Origin: a phage | Reading direction: 5' to 3' (one strand) | Length of the DNA stretch: 51,438 bases | Sequence record: PZ754631.1 | Part shown: piece by piece, positions 16,040-22,430 of the stretch | Layout: every line of letters starts with the position of its first letter | How positions within the stretch are numbered: the first letter of the stretch is position 1 | Translations under genes and position numbers: made by a program | The notes under the pieces: generated by a model | What the model was told of the DNA's origin: nothing | Seen by the model: only the letters and a program-made list of their open reading frames with translations | Database searches by the model: none

Positions 16040-19000
16040 ATGGCTGAAAATATGATAACGGGCAGTAAGGGTGGATCATCAAAACCTTATGTGCCGAAAG
16101 AGATGGAAGATAACCTGATCTCAATCAACAAAATCAAAATCCTTCTTGCCGTTTCCGATGGTGAGTGCGATCCATATTTCACGCTTCGCGATCTGTATCT
16201 CGATGATGTTCCGGTAATTGCAGATGATGGAACTGTTAACTATCAGGGTGTGAAAGCTGAATTTCGACCTGGAACGCAGACGCAAGATTACATCCAGGGG
16301 TTTACTGACACATCAAGCGAAGTGACGCTGGCGCGTGACATTACTACATCAAATCCTTATGTAATTTCTGTAACCAACAAAACATTGTCGGCTATCAGAA
16401 TAAAAATGCTAATGCCAACAGGCATTAAGCAAGAGGATAACGGCGATCTTGTAGGTGTTAAGGTCACTTATGCTGTTGATATGGCTGTTGACGGAGACTC
16501 TTACAAAGAAGTATTGCGAGACACCATCGAAGGTAAAACACGTTCAGGTTACGACAGAAGCCGAAGGATTGACCTTCCGGCATTTAATGATCGTGTATTA
16601 CTTAGGGTTAGAAGGGTTACGGCAGACAGCGCATCTTCTCGCGTTACTGATCTGATTAAGCTACAAAGTTACGCTGAGGTTATTGATGCAAAATTCCGTT
16701 ATCCTCTGACTGGTCTTGTATACGTTGAATTTGACAGTGAGTTGTTCCCTAACCAGATCCCTAACATTTCAATCAAGAAGAAATGGAAGTTGATTAATGT
16801 TCCGAGCAATTACGATCCGGTAATGCGAGAGTATCACGGTTCATGGAATGGTACGTTCAAGAAAGCGTGGTCGAACAATCCGGCGTGGGTACTTTATGAC
16901 ATTATCACAAACCAGCGATACGGATTAGATCAGCGAGAACTTGGTGTGCAGGTTGACAAATGGAGTCTTTACGAAGCGGCGCAATACTGCGATCAGAAAG
17001 TACCGGACGGAAAAGGCGGCACAGAGCCGCGTTATCTATGTGATGTTGTTATTCAGAGTCAGATTGAGGCTTATCAGCTTATTCGTGACATTTGCTCTAT
17101 CTTCCGTGGAATGAGCTTTTGGAATGGCGAGAGCTTGTCAATCGTTATTGATAAGCCGCGCGATCCGTCGTACATCTTCACCAATGACAACGTTGTTGAT
17201 GGTGATTTTCAGTACACAACAGCAAGCGAAAAGAGCATGTACACGCAGTGCAACGTGACGTTTGACGACGAACAAAACATGTATCAACAGGACGTAGAGG
17301 GCGTATTCGACACAGAGGCCGCATTGCGCTTTGGATACAATCCGACAAGCATAACAGCGATCGGATGTACACGCAGGAGTGAGGCTAATCGGCGCGGTCG
17401 ATGGATACTAAAAACCAACTTGCGCAGCACTACGGTAAACTTTGCTACTGGACTGGAAGGCATGATCCCATCAATAGGTGATGTGATTGCTATTGCTGAC
17501 AACTTTCACAGCAGCAACCTGAAGTTAAACCTATCAGGGCGCGTGATGGAAGTTTCCGGCTTACAGGTATTCGTTCCGTTTAAGATTGATGCTAGACCAG
17601 GTGATTTCATTATCATCAACAAGCCGGACGGAAAGCCAGTTAAGCGCACAATCTCAAAAGTAAGCGGTGACGGAAAAACCATTGAGCTAAACATCGGGTT
17701 TGGATTTGAAGTTAAACCGGACACGGTTTTTGCAATCGACCGCGCCGATATTGCTTTGCAGCAATACGTTGTAACGAGTATCGGCAAAGGTGATGATGAT
17801 GATGAATTTACATACTCCATCACGGCTGTTGAATATGACCCGAACAAATACGACGAGATTGATTATGGAGTAAACATTGACGACAGGCCAACCTCAATTG
17901 TCCAGCCTGACACAATGGCAGCGCCTGAAAATGTGCAAATATCCTCATACTCGCGAATTGTCCAGGGTGCAAGCGTTGAAACAATGGTTGTGTCGTGGGA
18001 TAAAGTACCTTACGCATCGCTGTATGAAATGCAATGGCGAAAAGGTGATGGCAACTGGCTGAATACACCACAGACTGCAAACAAAGAAATTGAGGTTGAA
18101 GGTATTTATTCAGGAAACTACCAGGTAAGGGTTAGATCTGTTTCCGCTTCAGGTTCTACGTCTCCGTGGTCCAGAATTGTGACAGCATCACTGACTGGTA
18201 AGGTGGGAGAGCCAGGCGCGCCAGTTAACTTAACCGCATCCGACAATGAAGTGTTTGGCATTCGTGTTAAGTGGGGGATGCCAGAAGGGAGCGGAGATAC
18301 GGCATACATTGAGCTTCATCAGTCGCCGGATGGAACGGCTGAAAACTCAAGCCTGCTAACGCTGATCCCGTATCCACAATATGAATACTGGCACGGTACG
18401 CTTCCGGCTGGTCATGTTGTCTGGTATAGAATCCGCAGCGTTGACAGAATCGGCAACGTTTCCGGCTGGACTGATTTTGTTAGAGGCATGGCTTCAGATG
18501 ATGTGGAGGCTGTTTTAGGTGATATTCTTGATAAGATTTTTGATACAGAAGCAGGCAAGGATCTGAAAGAGAACGCCATTGACAGTGCAAACAAGATAAA
18601 GGACCAGGCGCAAGCAATCATCCAGAATGCCCTTGCTAATGATGCTGATATTAAGTGGACGCGAGTACAAAACGGAAAGAGAAAGGCTGAATATGGTCAC
18701 GCTCTTGAGCTTATAGCCACAGAGACTGAGGCGCGAGTGACGCAGATTGAAGAGTTGAGGGCGTCAATCGACGAGGATATTGTTTCAAGCATAAAGACAG
18801 TGCAGGAGGCTATCGCCACAGAATCTGAAACGCGAGCAACTCAAATAAATGCTTTGGATTCAAAATTTACAACTGAAATTGACGGCGTAAAACGCAATAC
18901 AGCAGCAAGCATTAATCAGGTGAATCAAACCATTGCTAATGAGTCAGAAGCGCGCGCGCAGGCCGTTAACGCTCTTGATGCGAAGTTCACAAAGGAGATC

Positions 19001-19618
19001 GAAGATTTAAATGGAGTTATTAAGACTGAGGTTGAGGCTAACATCTCTGAAGTGAAACAGGCTATCGCTAACGAGACAGAGGCAAGGGTGCAGGCTGACC
19101 AGGCGTTAACAGCTAAGTTTGGAGACGTTGAATCTGCATTGTCGCAAAAACTTGATTCATGGGCTGGTGTGTCTTCTGTTGGTGCTAAATACTCAATGAA
19201 ACTTGGGTTAACTTACAACGGGCAGAAGTACAGCGCAGGAATGGTAATGCAGCTTTCGCAGAGTTCATCCGGCCTTATCTCGCAAATCTTGTTTGACGCG
19301 AACAGGTTCGCGATCATGACAAGTTCGACTGGCGGAACGTTTACTTTGCCTTTTGTTGTTGAAAACAACCAAGTTTTCATTAATAGCCTGTTAGTTAAAA
19401 ACGGTTCAATCACAAATGCTATGATCGGTAATTATATTCAGTCGAATAACTTTGTTGCCAATCAGCAGGGTTGGAGGCTGGATAAAAGCGGAAGATTTGA
19501 GAACTACGGTTCTACATCTGGAGAAGGGGCCATGAAGTTGACAAATGAAACGATAAGTGTACGAGACGCAAACGGGCGCTTGCGTGTTCAGATTGGTAGG
19601 CTTACTGGTACGTGGTAA
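16040..19618 (+). CDS. tail tip host-specificity protein (lambda J-like)
   Basis: 1192 aa; size and position; FN3-like central segments; preceded by terminator and -10 box. Confidence 0.8.
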   Translation: MAENMITGSKGGSSKPYVPKEMEDNLISINKIKILLAVSDGECDPYFTLRDLYLDDVPVIADDGTVNYQGVKAEFRPGTQTQDYIQGFTDTSSEVTLARDITTSNPYVISVTNKTLSAIRIKMLMPTGIKQEDNGDLVGVKVTYAVDMAVDGDSYKEVLRDTIEGKTRSGYDRSRRIDLPAFNDRVLLRVRRVTADSASSRVTDLIKLQSYAEVIDAKFRYPLTGLVYVEFDSELFPNQIPNISIKKKWKLINVPSNYDPVMREYHGSWNGTFKKAWSNNPAWVLYDIITNQRYGLDQRELGVQVDKWSLYEAAQYCDQKVPDGKGGTEPRYLCDVVIQSQIEAYQLIRDICSIFRGMSFWNGESLSIVIDKPRDPSYIFTNDNVVDGDFQYTTASEKSMYTQCNVTFDDEQNMYQQDVEGVFDTEAALRFGYNPTSITAIGCTRRSEANRRGRWILKTNLRSTTVNFATGLEGMIPSIGDVIAIADNFHSSNLKLNLSGRVMEVSGLQVFVPFKIDARPGDFIIINKPDGKPVKRTISKVSGDGKTIELNIGFGFEVKPDTVFAIDRADIALQQYVVTSIGKGDDDDEFTYSITAVEYDPNKYDEIDYGVNIDDRPTSIVQPDTMAAPENVQISSYSRIVQGASVETMVVSWDKVPYASLYEMQWRKGDGNWLNTPQTANKEIEVEGIYSGNYQVRVRSVSASGSTSPWSRIVTASLTGKVGEPGAPVNLTASDNEVFGIRVKWGMPEGSGDTAYIELHQSPDGTAENSSLLTLIPYPQYEYWHGTLPAGHVVWYRIRSVDRIGNVSGWTDFVRGMASDDVEAVLGDILDKIFDTEAGKDLKENAIDSANKIKDQAQAIIQNALANDADIKWTRVQNGKRKAEYGHALELIATETEARVTQIEELRASIDEDIVSSIKTVQEAIATESETRATQINALDSKFTTEIDGVKRNTAASINQVNQTIANESEARAQAVNALDAKFTKEIEDLNGVIKTEVEANISEVKQAIANETEARVQADQALTAKFGDVESALSQKLDSWAGVSSVGAKYSMKLGLTYNGQKYSAGMVMQLSQSSSGLISQILFDANRFAIMTSSTGGTFTLPFVVENNQVFINSLLVKNGSITNAMIGNYIQSNNFVANQQGWRLDKSGRFENYGSTSGEGAMKLTNETISVRDANGRLRVQIGRLTGTW

Positions 19619-19661
19619 AATCAAAGCGGGGCATTTGCCCCGCATTTATGGAGGTTTAATA

Positions 19662-19967
19662 ATGGCTGAATATGGTGTTTCAACGTGGGATGCTAACGGG
19701 AAGTATAACAACTACGGAATCAAGCCAGTTTCCGTTGTTGGTGTCATTAGCCTTGCGGCTGGTCAGACAAGCGGATCGTGGAGCTTTAGCATTCCAAGTG
19801 GTTTTAAGGTTGGGTATGTTGTTTCGCTTGATGAGGGTGCTAGAGGGGTTGGAAGGGAAATAGTAGCATCTGGAAACACAATAAGAATCAGTCCTACATC
19901 TTCAGTTGGTGCAAATAGATATTCTTCTTCAAAGTGTGAGTTAGTTGTTTTTCTTGAGAGGGCTTAA
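19662..19967 (+). CDS. hypothetical protein, MAEYG paralog 1 (tail-tip-associated?)
   Basis: RBS GGAGG; starts MAEYGVSTWDANGKY; shares YG..WDA(N/S)GK module with next gene. Confidence 0.55.
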   Translation: MAEYGVSTWDANGKYNNYGIKPVSVVGVISLAAGQTSGSWSFSIPSGFKVGYVVSLDEGARGVGREIVASGNTIRISPTSSVGANRYSSSKCELVVFLERA

Positions 19968-19968
19968 A

Positions 19969-20610
19969 ATGGCTGAATATGGAGCAATGTTATCTTTATC
20001 AAATGGGAATCCATTTATCACACCAAAATCAACGCCATTTTGCTTATATGGCAAGTACACTTATTCATCTTCTGGCACTTCTGCCTATCATAGCGCAAGC
20101 GCAAATATACCATTGAATCAATCTTATCCATGTATGGCATTTATAAAAACAACAAACACACAGCAGCCAACTGCATTAATAGCTTACAGGAATGGTGGCA
20201 ACATTTATGTAAACGGAGGCAATCCATACGGGCAATCATTTACAATGACTGTTTATATATTTGCCATATTCCCTCAAACTCTACCCAAATATGGTATGGC
20301 TATATGGGATGCAAGCGGCAAGTTGGTTTTAACTAATGAAAGCAGGGTGCTAACAGATCTTGTTACAATTGGTACTCCTGGTTCTTCAGGTGGAACGAAT
20401 ATAGATCAAACGTTATCTGGTTCTTATGCCGTTTGCCCTTCAAGGCTTGGTGCGGTTGTAGGCATGGGTGCTTCTGATATATACACATCATGCAGGTATA
20501 ATGGTTCAAGCACAAGGATAGGTGCAGCAAGGACAACGCCAGGAACAGGATCTATAACAAATAACGGAAATTCAATAATTGCAATAAAGACTGATATTTA
20601 CGACCAATGA
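19969..20610 (+). CDS. hypothetical protein, MAEYG paralog 2 (tail-tip-associated?)
   Basis: starts MAEYGAML; contains second copy of module (KYGMAIWDASGK); Ser/Gly/Thr-rich; followed by bidirectional terminator. Confidence 0.55.
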   Translation: MAEYGAMLSLSNGNPFITPKSTPFCLYGKYTYSSSGTSAYHSASANIPLNQSYPCMAFIKTTNTQQPTALIAYRNGGNIYVNGGNPYGQSFTMTVYIFAIFPQTLPKYGMAIWDASGKLVLTNESRVLTDLVTIGTPGSSGGTNIDQTLSGSYAVCPSRLGAVVGMGASDIYTSCRYNGSSTRIGAARTTPGTGSITNNGNSIIAIKTDIYDQ

Positions 20611-20640
20611 AAAAAGGGGCTTACGCCCCTTTATTTTTAT
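20611..20640. terminator. bidirectional intrinsic terminator between convergent genes
   Basis: A-run, AGGGGC-TTAC-GCCCCT, T-run. Confidence 0.7.
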
Positions 20641-20868
20641 TTACAGACTGCAATCAGCGTTTTTAAAGTTATCAATGCTTACCCACTGAAAATTAAACGG
20701 ATAGCCAGCCTTAACAAGAGTGTGTTCGCCAACTCGTTTTACTCCAAAAATAGCAACTGAATACTGCATTCCGCTATTTTCATAAATAGCCGAGCATTCA
20801 CGCTTAGGCATATTTGCACATCCAGTCAGTGCAACGGTGGCAATCAAAACGGCGATTAACTTTTTCAT
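20641..20868 (-). CDS. small outer-membrane lipoprotein, candidate superinfection-exclusion factor (Cor/Llp-like)
   Basis: 75 aa; signal peptide plus lipobox LTGC; own promoter module upstream; located just past receptor-binding genes on opposite strand. Confidence 0.55.
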   Translation of the reverse strand: MKKLIAVLIATVALTGCANMPKRECSAIYENSGMQYSVAIFGVKRVGEHTLVKAGYPFNFQWVSIDNFKNADCSL

Positions 20869-20899
20869 TTTTGTGTCTCCTTAGTTGTTGTTGGTTGCA

Positions 20900-20943
20900 A
20901 CTATACACGATCTTGCGGTGGGCGTTTAGCAAAAAGTGCTATT
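20900..20943 (-). promoter_or_regulatory. early promoter cassette (minus) driving Cor-like lipoprotein
   Basis: on minus strand AATAGCACTTTTTGCTAAA, 19-bp spacer, TATAGT. Confidence 0.5.
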
Positions 20944-21038
20944 CTTGTTCTTTTTGTTATCCGGTGTTCTCAAATCTGCGGAGTCTTAAATTTAGCTCAA
21001 AAAGTGAACAACAATAGAGCGCAATACATACAGATAAA

Positions 21039-21120
21039 TATATACATACATATAAATCAATAAGTTAGTAGTATATATGTTTATATTTGTTTTTCTTGTT
21101 ATCTATGTTTTGTGTGATTT
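21039..21120 (+). repeat. ~75 bp AT-rich element with IHF-consensus core, copy 1
   Basis: exact 16-mer AAATCAATAAGTTAGT (21054-21069) matching WATCAANNNNTTR, followed by TATATATGT..TTATATTTGTTT..CTTGTT shared with copy 2. Confidence 0.6.
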
Positions 21121-21311
21121 TGTGTGTCTGGTGATTTTTTATGTGGTTGTGTATGTGTCAGTGTCTGTGTGTGTCTATATATCTATATCCGGCGCAAATT
21201 GAGGAACAAGAGAACAAAAAGACAACAAAGATATTTATCAATCACTTACATGTAAGTTTTGTTATCAAAGCTGGACAGAACGTTGCTAGAACAGAAAAAA
21301 CAAAACAACTA

Positions 21312-21339
21312 TTGACTAAACGCATCAAATAGCTACAAT
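21312..21339 (+). promoter_or_regulatory. sigma70-type promoter for recombination module
   Basis: TTGACT, 16-bp spacer, TACAAT; ATG about 30 nt downstream. Confidence 0.55.
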
Positions 21340-21368
21340 GCAGGCATACCAACCAACGAGGGCAAATC

Positions 21369-22430
21369 ATGAATAAGTTTATGGCGTACACCAGCGAAGA
21401 AATGAGTAACGAGCTTTATCACGATCCAGAAGCGTGGACGGCTGATTATGTTAGCGGCTCAAGCCTGGCAGAGATTTACAGCACATGCCCGGCAGCGTGG
21501 AAGTTCAAGCCGCGTGACGACAAGAGCAAGGCGCTAGTTTTTGGTACGCAGTCGCATACCAACTTTGAAAGCAGTGAGCTTTTCGAAAAAACCTATCGCC
21601 GTGCGCCAGCGCCAGAAGACTTTAAGGATCTGATAACCAGCCAAACGGCGCTTGCTGCAAAGCTAAAATCATTTGGCCTGAAAGGTACAACAGGAAAGAC
21701 TTACCCTGAACTTATAAAAATGTTGGTTGACTGCGGAGAAGACCTTAACGTTATGTGGTTAATCGACATGATCGCAGAAAGCCAGGCCATGGCCGATGGG
21801 GTTCAGTTAATCGAAGCTAAAGATTACGATGCGTGCGTGGCAATGCGCCAGGTTCTGGAATCAATACCGGAACATAACGCATGTATGAATAGCAAGACGG
21901 CACAACGTGAATTATCGTTGTTCGGTGAAATCAACGGCGTAAAAGTCAAAGTGCGATGCGATCACGTTGACGTAACAAAGAACGTCACCGCAACGCTGAT
22001 TGATGGTTACGATGAAAAAGGTCAGCCAATTTGCCGCGATATTATTTATCCAGAGGCCATTGTGATCACAGACTACAAAACCACAATGAGCGCGAATCCG
22101 GCTGAGTTTATGCGCCTGGCTTACAATCACGGCTATTATTTGAAAATGGCGTTGCAATGTGATTTATTCAGAAAAGCGTATCCAGAAGAAAAGCGACCTA
22201 TAGTTGTGCGACTGTTAGCGCAAGAGAAGAAAGAGCCTTATTTGCCGTTGGCTTTCCGCATGAACAGCGAGCAATTGAAGATCGGGCGCATTCAGTACAT
22301 GAGCGTAATTAACCAGTTTGCCATGTGCCAGCAACATAACGTTTGGCCTTCGTATTCAAACGGCGAGCCGGAGGTTTGCCTTGATACTCCTGATTGGGTG
22401 CGACGCCAGTTTAAGCAATATCTTATTTAA
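21369..22430 (+). CDS. RecB/Cas4-family (PD-(D/E)XK) exonuclease
   Basis: 353 aa; motifs CDHVD and ITDYKTT typical of RecB-like nuclease core; upstream of Erf and SSB. Confidence 0.65.
   Translation: MNKFMAYTSEEMSNELYHDPEAWTADYVSGSSLAEIYSTCPAAWKFKPRDDKSKALVFGTQSHTNFESSELFEKTYRRAPAPEDFKDLITSQTALAAKLKSFGLKGTTGKTYPELIKMLVDCGEDLNVMWLIDMIAESQAMADGVQLIEAKDYDACVAMRQVLESIPEHNACMNSKTAQRELSLFGEINGVKVKVRCDHVDVTKNVTATLIDGYDEKGQPICRDIIYPEAIVITDYKTTMSANPAEFMRLAYNHGYYLKMALQCDLFRKAYPEEKRPIVVRLLAQEKKEPYLPLAFRMNSEQLKIGRIQYMSVINQFAMCQQHNVWPSYSNGEPEVCLDTPDWVRRQFKQYLI

Follow-up and report, generated by a model that had tools for sequence, protein, structure and literature searches.

Our analysis of the phage sequence record PZ754631.1 (51,438 nucleotides; this whole stretch is referred to as the window) supports a model in which two adjacent open reading frames (ORFs) downstream of the J-like tail-tip gene, ORF A and ORF B, encode the two subunits of a terminal receptor-binding module. 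In this model, which we consider likely to be correct, the module is held non-covalently on the tip of J and recognises FhuA, and the adjacent cor gene encodes the matching exclusion lipoprotein. The function of the locus is already known by correlation while the proteins themselves are uncharacterised, and both the locus and its link to FhuA have been published; what we add is a fold link to a solved receptor-binding protein (RBP) and the model of a three-repeat RBP split over two genes.

ORF A (19662-19967, + strand; ATG at 19662, TAA at 19965-19967) encodes the putative small subunit of 101 amino acids (aa), with an N-terminal arm and one six-stranded β-sandwich, and ORF B (19969-20610, + strand; ATG at 19969, TGA at 20608-20610) the putative large subunit of 213 aa, with two β-sandwich domains and an arm before each. 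The upstream gene (16040-19618, + strand) encodes a J-like central tail fibre or tail-tip protein of 1192 aa, which would provide a trimeric platform for the receptor binder and which matches the Pfam families FNIII-A_GpJ (E = 2.9e-38), Phage-tail_3 (4.2e-23) and Phage_Tail_Tip (4.1e-41, aa 1034-1166) as well as phrog_31, 'central tail fiber J'. As an initial annotation made from the sequence had stated, both ORFs open with MAEYG, a string that occurs exactly twice (at 19662 and 19969) in the six-frame translation of the window. Upstream GTG and TTG codons lengthen both ORFs in the ORF listing; we take the MAEYG methionines as the starts because all homologues begin at a methionine of this type and because a GGAGG ribosome-binding site, read off the sequence at 19650-19654 (+ strand), lies 7 nt 5' of ATG 19662. 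ORF B starts one base past the ORF A stop, in a different reading frame and preceded by GAGAGGG, the classical layout for translational coupling, and the two genes are translationally coupled.

ORF A belongs to phrog_557 (3.8e-30, 97 of 100 positions) and ORF B to phrog_425 (4.8e-69, full length), so that the gene order in the window reads J, phrog_557, phrog_425, cor. By tblastn, both proteins are found, always as a pair, in about 345 phage genomes (among them T1, HK022, the mEp lambdoids, Dhillonvirus and Klebsiella phages), with 58% (ORF A) and 56% (ORF B) identity to gp32 and gp31 of T1. The arrangement is equally constant across 80 IMG/VR loci: an ORF A-like frame lies -1 to +1 nt from the ORF B start in 79, the J C-terminus lies just 5' of A in 77 and directly abuts the A start in 70 of these, and 78 of 79 loci encode a Cor homologue no more than about 300 nt past ORF B, 74 of them on the same strand. 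In the window, cor (20641-20868, - strand) encodes a 75-aa superinfection-exclusion lipoprotein that blocks FhuA and would be the partner of the ORF A/B module; it matches the NCBIfam model lamb_exclu_cor (3.5e-19; score 68.6 against a cut-off of 31 bits) and phrog_1119 (9.1e-28), and it has the N-terminal signal sequence MKKLIAVLIATVALTGC with the lipobox LTGC.

The locus after J has been described as an FhuA-associated 'bona fide RBP locus', and its alleles have been tied to receptor specificity (PMC8594841; bioRxiv 10.64898/2026.04.02.716166), a correlation that the latter, a 2026 preprint, confirmed over 101 siphoviruses. Bas07, Bas12, Bas13, Bas15 and Bas17 are FhuA users in the BASEL table (Maffei et al. 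2021, PMC8594841), and each of the five gave tblastn matches to both proteins. T1 and HK022, which are reported to use FhuA, have both genes as well. According to the KanT1 paper, 10 BASEL phages have cor and both upstream genes, and every one of them is an FhuA user (PMC13164509). Over this region the sequence shares 98.6% identity with Escherichia phage Fulano1 and 96.6% with Henu8 (Drexlerviridae, Tempevirinae, Hanrivervirus), and the window is a Hanrivervirus-like Drexlerviridae (T1-like) phage. The locus is an allele of one that has been described before, and the phage that carries it hardly differs from isolates already sequenced; by analogy, the window phage itself presumably depends on FhuA.

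Over its last 110 residues, J is nearly the same in the FhuA-type phages (the window, T1 and Bas07) as in the BtuB-type phage Bas06, and specificity must therefore lie downstream of J. Compared with Bas07, an FhuA-dependent phage of the same genus, the flanks are 93-99% identical and cor about 95%, whereas the block from 18600 to 20560 (distal J, ORF A and ORF B) is 9-89% identical, mostly below 80%; within J, most of this divergence, including a 51-aa indel, falls in the repeats of the coiled coil and not in the tip. Both the published FhuA locus and this divergent block between close relatives bear out the suggestion of the initial annotation that receptor-recognition proteins follow the tail-tip gene. 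In the alignment across relatives that it had proposed as a check for hypervariability, the locus and the distal third of J diverge, and the motif arms described below are conserved. Its word 'accessory' does not fit, given a J tip that cannot discriminate between receptors, and the pair is most likely the terminal receptor binder itself.

As a separate observation on J, the segment at ~18690-19070 (aa ~885-1010), a predicted coiled coil, contains four diverged copies of the ~19-aa unit IA(T/N)E(T/S)E(A/T)R..Q...L..KF spaced about 35 residues apart. The J protein of Bas07 is 51 aa shorter, and this repeat stretch is the most divergent between the two phages; tandem DNA repeats were not detectable in the distal region of J.

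Motif arms, domains and predicted folds

The six-frame translation of the window contains the motif YG...WDA[NS]GK at exactly two sites, 19671 (ORF A aa 4-14) and 20290 (ORF B aa 108-118), and neither this motif nor MAEYG was seen in 50 shuffles. The motif is thus present in both ORFs, as first described, but in ORF B the internal copy is the only full one and does not come on top of another; the N-terminal copy (MAEYGAMLSLSNGN) is degenerate, without W-D-A. The J-like protein has a third DA[NS]G[KR] core within its final 20 residues (ETISVRDANGRLRVQIG), as part of the C-terminal hairpin motif ISVRDANGRLRV (19553-19588, + strand). DA[NS]G[KR] sites number three in all in the six-frame translation of the window, compared with a shuffle mean of 0.11, and none of 100 shuffles reached three. 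The hairpin motif at the end of J is conserved in 77 related loci and also in T1, Bas06, Bas07 and Bas11; the J proteins of FhuA-, BtuB- and YncD-type phages end in the same type of hairpin, and the J end of Oekolampad is more diverged.

ORF A is a single-domain relative of the N-terminal domain of ORF B. BLASTP between the two aligns the 14-residue motif only (E = 6e-4), while an hhalign comparison of the family profiles extends over 80 columns between ORF A and the N-terminal part of ORF B (E = 4.6e-5, probability 69%), and the predicted strands of ORF A and of the first ORF B domain are in register. The two halves of ORF B do not align significantly with each other by hhalign (E = 0.22), and ORF A matches the C-terminal half over 13 motif residues only. 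The initial description of the ORFs as tandem paralogs therefore holds, at the level of remote homology, for ORF A and the N-terminal half of ORF B but not for the C-terminal half, so that sequence does not support paralogy of all three domains.

AlphaFold2 (AF2), in line with the structure prediction suggested at the outset, gave soluble all-β models with one sandwich for ORF A and two for ORF B. The ORF A model has a mean predicted local distance difference test score (pLDDT) of 87, with a six-stranded sandwich at residues 24-100 and an uncertain stretch over the first 20 residues; the ORF B model, based on the family alignment, has a mean pLDDT of 91 and a predicted template modelling score of 0.87, with lower confidence at residues 1-20 and a dip at ~101-130. 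Each domain is preceded by an arm. Arm 1 (19662-19730, + strand; ORF A aa 1-23), in which YGVSTWDANGK at 19671-19703 is followed by the nearly invariant NNYGIKPVSVVG, has the lowest entropy of its family and a pLDDT of 59-73 in the AF2 monomer. Arm 2 (19969-20040, + strand; ORF B aa 1-24), with the degenerate motif MAEYGAMLSLSNGNPFITPKSTPF, has an entropy of 0.76-0.89 (aa 11-30) and a pLDDT of 60-65. The junction and arm 3 (20266-20358, + strand; ORF B aa 100-130), in which YGMAIWDASGK at 20290-20322 is followed by LVLTNESRVL, make up the most conserved block of the family (entropy 0.3-0.9), with P106, G109, W113, T122, E124 and L128 invariant. The N-terminal sandwich of ORF B (20041-20265, + strand; aa 25-99) is its most variable part (entropy 1.4-2.2 bits), and the C-terminal sandwich (20359-20607, + strand; aa 131-213) includes a variable, indel-rich stretch at aa 161-200, the most variable residues overall being 31-90 and 161-200. 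The Ser/Gly/Thr-rich segments initially noticed in ORF B are present and fall mostly in variable regions, with the exception of GTPGSSGG (135-142) inside the conserved 91-160 block.

Scans against Pfam and NCBIfam returned no family for ORF A or ORF B, and searches of PDB sequences with both family profiles gave chance matches only (E 0.07-0.23). In the BFVD database, the Foldseek matches of the ORF B model are uncharacterised two-domain phage proteins of ~220-260 aa only (E 1e-7 to 1e-4, template modelling score 0.5-0.63). The model does match the solved LptD-binding RBP of Oekolampad/Rtp44 (DUF6453, PF20051; PDB 9RPT/9RQI; PMC12685063), pointing to a two-sandwich receptor-binding body fold common to both. 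A likeness of the six-stranded antiparallel β-sandwich to the H-type lectin fold (HPA, SLL-2) is at most possible. That protein is one chain of 321 aa, compared with 314 aa for A and B together, and its cryo-electron microscopy (cryo-EM) map does not contain residues 1-25, 113-142 and 206-234, the poorly ordered part being tail-proximal (PMC12685063). The arms of A and B, numbered cumulatively, begin at positions 1, 102 and 206 and are collinear with these three disordered segments. In the DUF6453 family, the arms have entropies of 0.65, 1.01 and 0.88 bits, compared with 2.09 for the first and 1.69 for the third body, while the middle body (143-205), at 1.09, is about as conserved as an arm. 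In the ORF A/B and DUF6453 families alike, conservation is highest in the arms, which are also the least confident segments in the AF2 monomers of ORF A and ORF B. This pattern suggests that the motif is a conserved tail-attachment element rather than a variable receptor-contact element.

The same pattern bears on the initial idea that module duplication reflects diversification. The layout of a small protein plus a two-domain protein, with the motif at the head of each domain, is common to FhuA-, BtuB- and YncD-type loci, and probably to the single-chain LptD type as well, and nothing in these proteins is more conserved than the motif arms; the duplication is an ancient structural trait and no sign of recent diversification.

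The BFVD fold matches of ORF B include proteins of Xanthomonas phage phiL7 (p23), Pectobacterium phage DU_PP_V and Acinetobacter phage B09_Aci02-2, and the hosts represented include Xanthomonas, Acinetobacter, Pectobacterium, Proteus and Pseudomonas. These model-based matches hint that RBPs of the ORF B type may be spread far beyond the siphoviruses of enterobacteria.

We propose the following mechanism. Translational coupling would ensure that A and B are made in equal amounts, and the two proteins would form a 1:1 heterodimer collinear with a single-chain RBP of ~320 aa, that is, a split protein of three repeats, each opening with a hairpin arm that is conserved ([YW]G-x-x-h-W-D-x-x-G). In isolation the three arms would lack structure; together they may gather at the tail-proximal side and dock onto, or prolong, the C-termini of the J trimer, whose final hairpins are of the same kind. 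At the far end, the variable bodies of the sandwiches and their loops would touch the extracellular loops of FhuA and trigger DNA ejection, and Cor would block FhuA in the infected cell.

Alternative roles of the two genes

The best-placed alternative, which we nevertheless regard as unlikely, is that ORF B alone is the virion receptor binder, with ORF A acting as a non-structural chaperone of assembly or as an attachment factor, similar to tail-fibre assembly proteins. ORF A, however, is a fold relative of the first domain of ORF B and shares its arm motif with the RBP domains and the J terminus; its most conserved element is the arm and not a surface typical of a chaperone; and A+B and the single-chain LptD RBP have near-equal lengths and coinciding arm positions. 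Our analysis suggests that the first third of a split RBP is supplied by the small 'accessory' protein.

Much less probable is an extended cor cassette, in which ORF A and ORF B are not virion proteins but membrane-associated accessory factors of the Cor exclusion system. The tight linkage to cor in the IMG/VR loci is consistent with such a role, which was put forward in the KanT1 paper (PMC13164509). Yet ORF A and ORF B are predicted to be soluble all-β proteins and contain no signal peptide, lipobox or transmembrane segment (the maximal 19-residue Kyte-Doolittle mean is 1.05 for A and 0.93 for B), and their MAEYG N-termini have an acidic E3 and lack the basic n-region and hydrophobic core, in contrast to the N-terminus of Cor (MKKLIAVLIATVALTGC). 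The absence of such signals argues for a virion receptor binder; it speaks against the proposed role in exclusion and against the annotation as 'outer membrane / membrane associated protein' in databases. Moreover, the genes are translationally coupled to J in most relatives, the homologous pairs in the BtuB- and YncD-type loci examined adjoin different exclusion or signal-peptide proteins, and in the T5/Llp and Rtp45 systems the lipoprotein alone suffices for exclusion.

The weakest alternative, and one to which we attach hardly any weight, is that the C-terminal domain of J is the true FhuA binder, as gpJ of lambda is for LamB, with ORF A and ORF B only modulating host range or decorating the tip: the J C-terminus does carry specificity in lambda and in TolC- and LamB-targeting relatives, and the distal third of J does diverge along with A and B between the window and Bas07, but that divergence spares the tip, the tip is shared by FhuA and BtuB phages, and receptor type follows the downstream genes.

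Several points weigh against the model of a two-subunit FhuA binder on the J tip. A literature search for either protein found neither virion mass-spectrometry evidence nor other proteomic or structural data that would place it at the tail tip or on the receptor. The KanT1 paper, whose authors obtained no Foldseek or HHpred matches for either protein, proposes a role in Cor superinfection exclusion instead (PMC13164509). The DUF6453 Pfam model did not match ORF A or ORF B at E ≤ 1, and hhalign with the DUF6453 profile gave E = 0.065 for ORF B, 0.24 for ORF A and 0.035 for A+B (range 0.004-0.24, including halves and the order B+A); the sole marginal sequence match to DUF6453 is the third arm (Oekolampad 203-237 against A+B 199-231; E 0.035 to 0.004), and we claim homology to this family on the fold of the models and not on sequence. 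Across 77 loci, co-variation of the J terminal hairpin with the arm motifs followed no pattern, and in the cryo-EM structure of T1 gp33, the J homologue, the protein is trimeric with its distal fibre end unresolved (PMC11945409). In Oekolampad, Bas06 and Bas11, the RBP genes are on the strand opposite to J, together with an exclusion or signal-peptide gene; given that this holds for LptD, BtuB and YncD loci alike, operon orientation is not decisive. Finally, a full-database profile search, with 142 family clusters, yielded no fused A+B protein.

One candidate for such a fusion, a 337-aa protein (P0365), was rejected because it is a chimera in which an FN3/coiled-coil fragment of J is joined to an ORF B homologue that lacks its N-terminal third. 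In another case (P0103), on a bacterial contig, a truncated fragment runs in frame from the J C-terminus into an ORF A-like N-terminus (...RLTGCSDMAYGIQTW...). Both are probably decayed prophage genes. A remote relative, P0425, has no counterpart among isolated phages.

Elements flanking the gene pair

The stretch that separates the J stop from the start of ORF A contains a perfect G+C hairpin of 7 bp (19626-19643; centroid -16.5 kcal/mol, fold z-score -1.5). The equivalent site in T1 is an annotated terminator, and the U-tract of the window hairpin is weak on the + strand. The hairpin is missing in 70 of 77 relatives, of lambdoid or Dhillonvirus type, where the J stop and the A start lie -1 or +1 nt apart, and it is particular to the Drexlerviridae arrangement. 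It is possibly an attenuator or an mRNA-stability element; in view of the weak U-tract, the z-score and its absence from most relatives, we do not claim it as an attenuator that sets stoichiometry.

ORF B and cor share a bidirectional intrinsic terminator (20613-20632) with an 8-bp stem and T-runs on both strands. The surrounding 32 bp 3' of ORF B (20607-20638) are 100% identical in about 87 Klebsiella phage genomes, where they sit under spanin-annotated genes and distant from the ORF A/B homologues of these phages. An apparent locus at least 99% identical in 87 Klebsiella phages was rejected, as the 32-bp terminator alone explains every such match. Between cor and the exonuclease VIII gene there is a 500-bp non-coding gap (20869-21368) with TA- and TG-rich low-complexity runs such as gtgtatgtgtcagtgtctgtgtgtgtctatatatctatat and, at 21312-21339, a site that resembles a promoter well. 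An Rfam scan of 19000-21500 gave sub-threshold terminator-like matches only.

GenBank entries MG065636-MG065687 ('Campylobacter phage A13a, A14a, A16a...') are 95-97% identical to 19400-21000 of the window and contain the FhuA-type module. Judging by this identity, these entries, labelled as Campylobacter jejuni phages, look like mislabelled or contaminant T1-like coliphage sequences.

Comparison with known receptor-binding systems

The closest counterparts of ORF A and ORF B are gp32/gp31 of T1, gp22/gp23 of N15 and the genes after gp24 in HK022, which belong to the same families (PHROG 557/425). The T1-type locus, like that of the window, has the order J, small, large, cor and is associated with phages of the small siphovirus group reported or tabulated as FhuA-dependent; identity to the T1 proteins is 55-58% (Wietzorrek 2006 as cited in PMC13164509; Maffei 2021, PMC8594841). 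Nothing essential differs from it, the genus of the window having cor on the opposite strand and the GC hairpin between J and ORF A; in lambdoid and Dhillonvirus relatives, unlike in the window, J, A, B and cor are all co-directional and abutting. Our analysis ties this uncharacterised T1 gp31/gp32 family to a solved RBP.

Drexlerviridae phages with other receptors have comparable pairs. Bas06 KarlJaspers, a BtuB-dependent phage of the same genus, has nearly the same J and, next to it, encodes a lipoprotein and two proteins that align with the pair of the window: one of 91 aa (MAYGYAIYDEQGR...) with ORF A (E = 4.4e-6 over 74 columns) and one of 204 aa (MYGMQITKPDGS...HGIAFYNSAGQM...) with ORF B (E = 4.7e-6 over 197 columns). 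In the YncD-dependent Bas11 JohannLBurckhardt, a 99-aa protein (MSGLQAWDGAGNL...) is followed by a 216-aa protein (MPGFEVYNNSGAMM...GVLDVFDGSGQLIW...). Similarly to ORF A and ORF B, these pairs consist of a small and then a large protein with the hairpin motif at all three domain starts, while their sandwich bodies have diverged from those of ORF A/B beyond BLAST alignment. The Oekolampad RBP differs further: it is a single chain starting MGAGILIDYNDGRP, has only 14% identity to ORF A/B, binds LptD and not a TonB-dependent transporter, and is encoded on the strand opposite to J and in the orientation of the exclusion gene. The signal peptide of the Bas06 lipoprotein (MKKLIAVLIAAVALTGC; L007 5546-5815) is almost the same as that of Cor (MKKLIAVLIATVALTGC) and its mature part is different; at the sequence level, this suggests that the bodies of exclusion proteins may be exchanged behind a fixed export signal.

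We speculate, more tentatively than for the FhuA module itself, that FhuA-, BtuB-, YncD- and LptD-type binders of small siphoviruses form one three-repeat superfamily, made either as one chain (DUF6453) or split 1+2, whose three arms constitute a pseudo-threefold socket that continues the β-structure of the three identical J C-terminal hairpins, in which the D-x-x-G motif of the arms recurs. The latest preprint, by contrast, terms the receptor-binder families 'unrelated' (bioRxiv 10.64898/2026.04.02.716166). If our idea were true, the arm socket would reconcile an asymmetric receptor binder with a trimeric fibre, a 3:1 mismatch in symmetry, and a portable 'plug' for phage re-targeting would be defined. 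For the structural model of the ORF A/B pair itself, confirmation would mean that the bodies are what a receptor swap should exchange, with the arms left in place. Because the locus, by the published correlation, sets the outer-membrane protein used for DNA injection by many common coliphages, Klebsiella phages and lambdoid prophages, it matters for the prediction and engineering of host range.

A similar division of labour is known from T5, where the trimeric central fibre carries at its tip a separate, non-covalently attached protein, pb5, dedicated to the recognition of FhuA, as proposed here for ORF A and ORF B, and where Llp, similarly to Cor, is a small lipoprotein that blocks FhuA from the periplasmic side (PMC9586334). 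The tail-proximal part of pb5 is disordered in the isolated RBP, to which we liken the arms of ORF A and ORF B; neither protein showed sequence or fold similarity to pb5. Finally, the window phage and lambda share the J tail-tip platform and the infection step at which it acts, but the lambda binder is a covalent part of J, whereas that of the window would be supplied by separate downstream genes on a J tip common to phages with different receptors.

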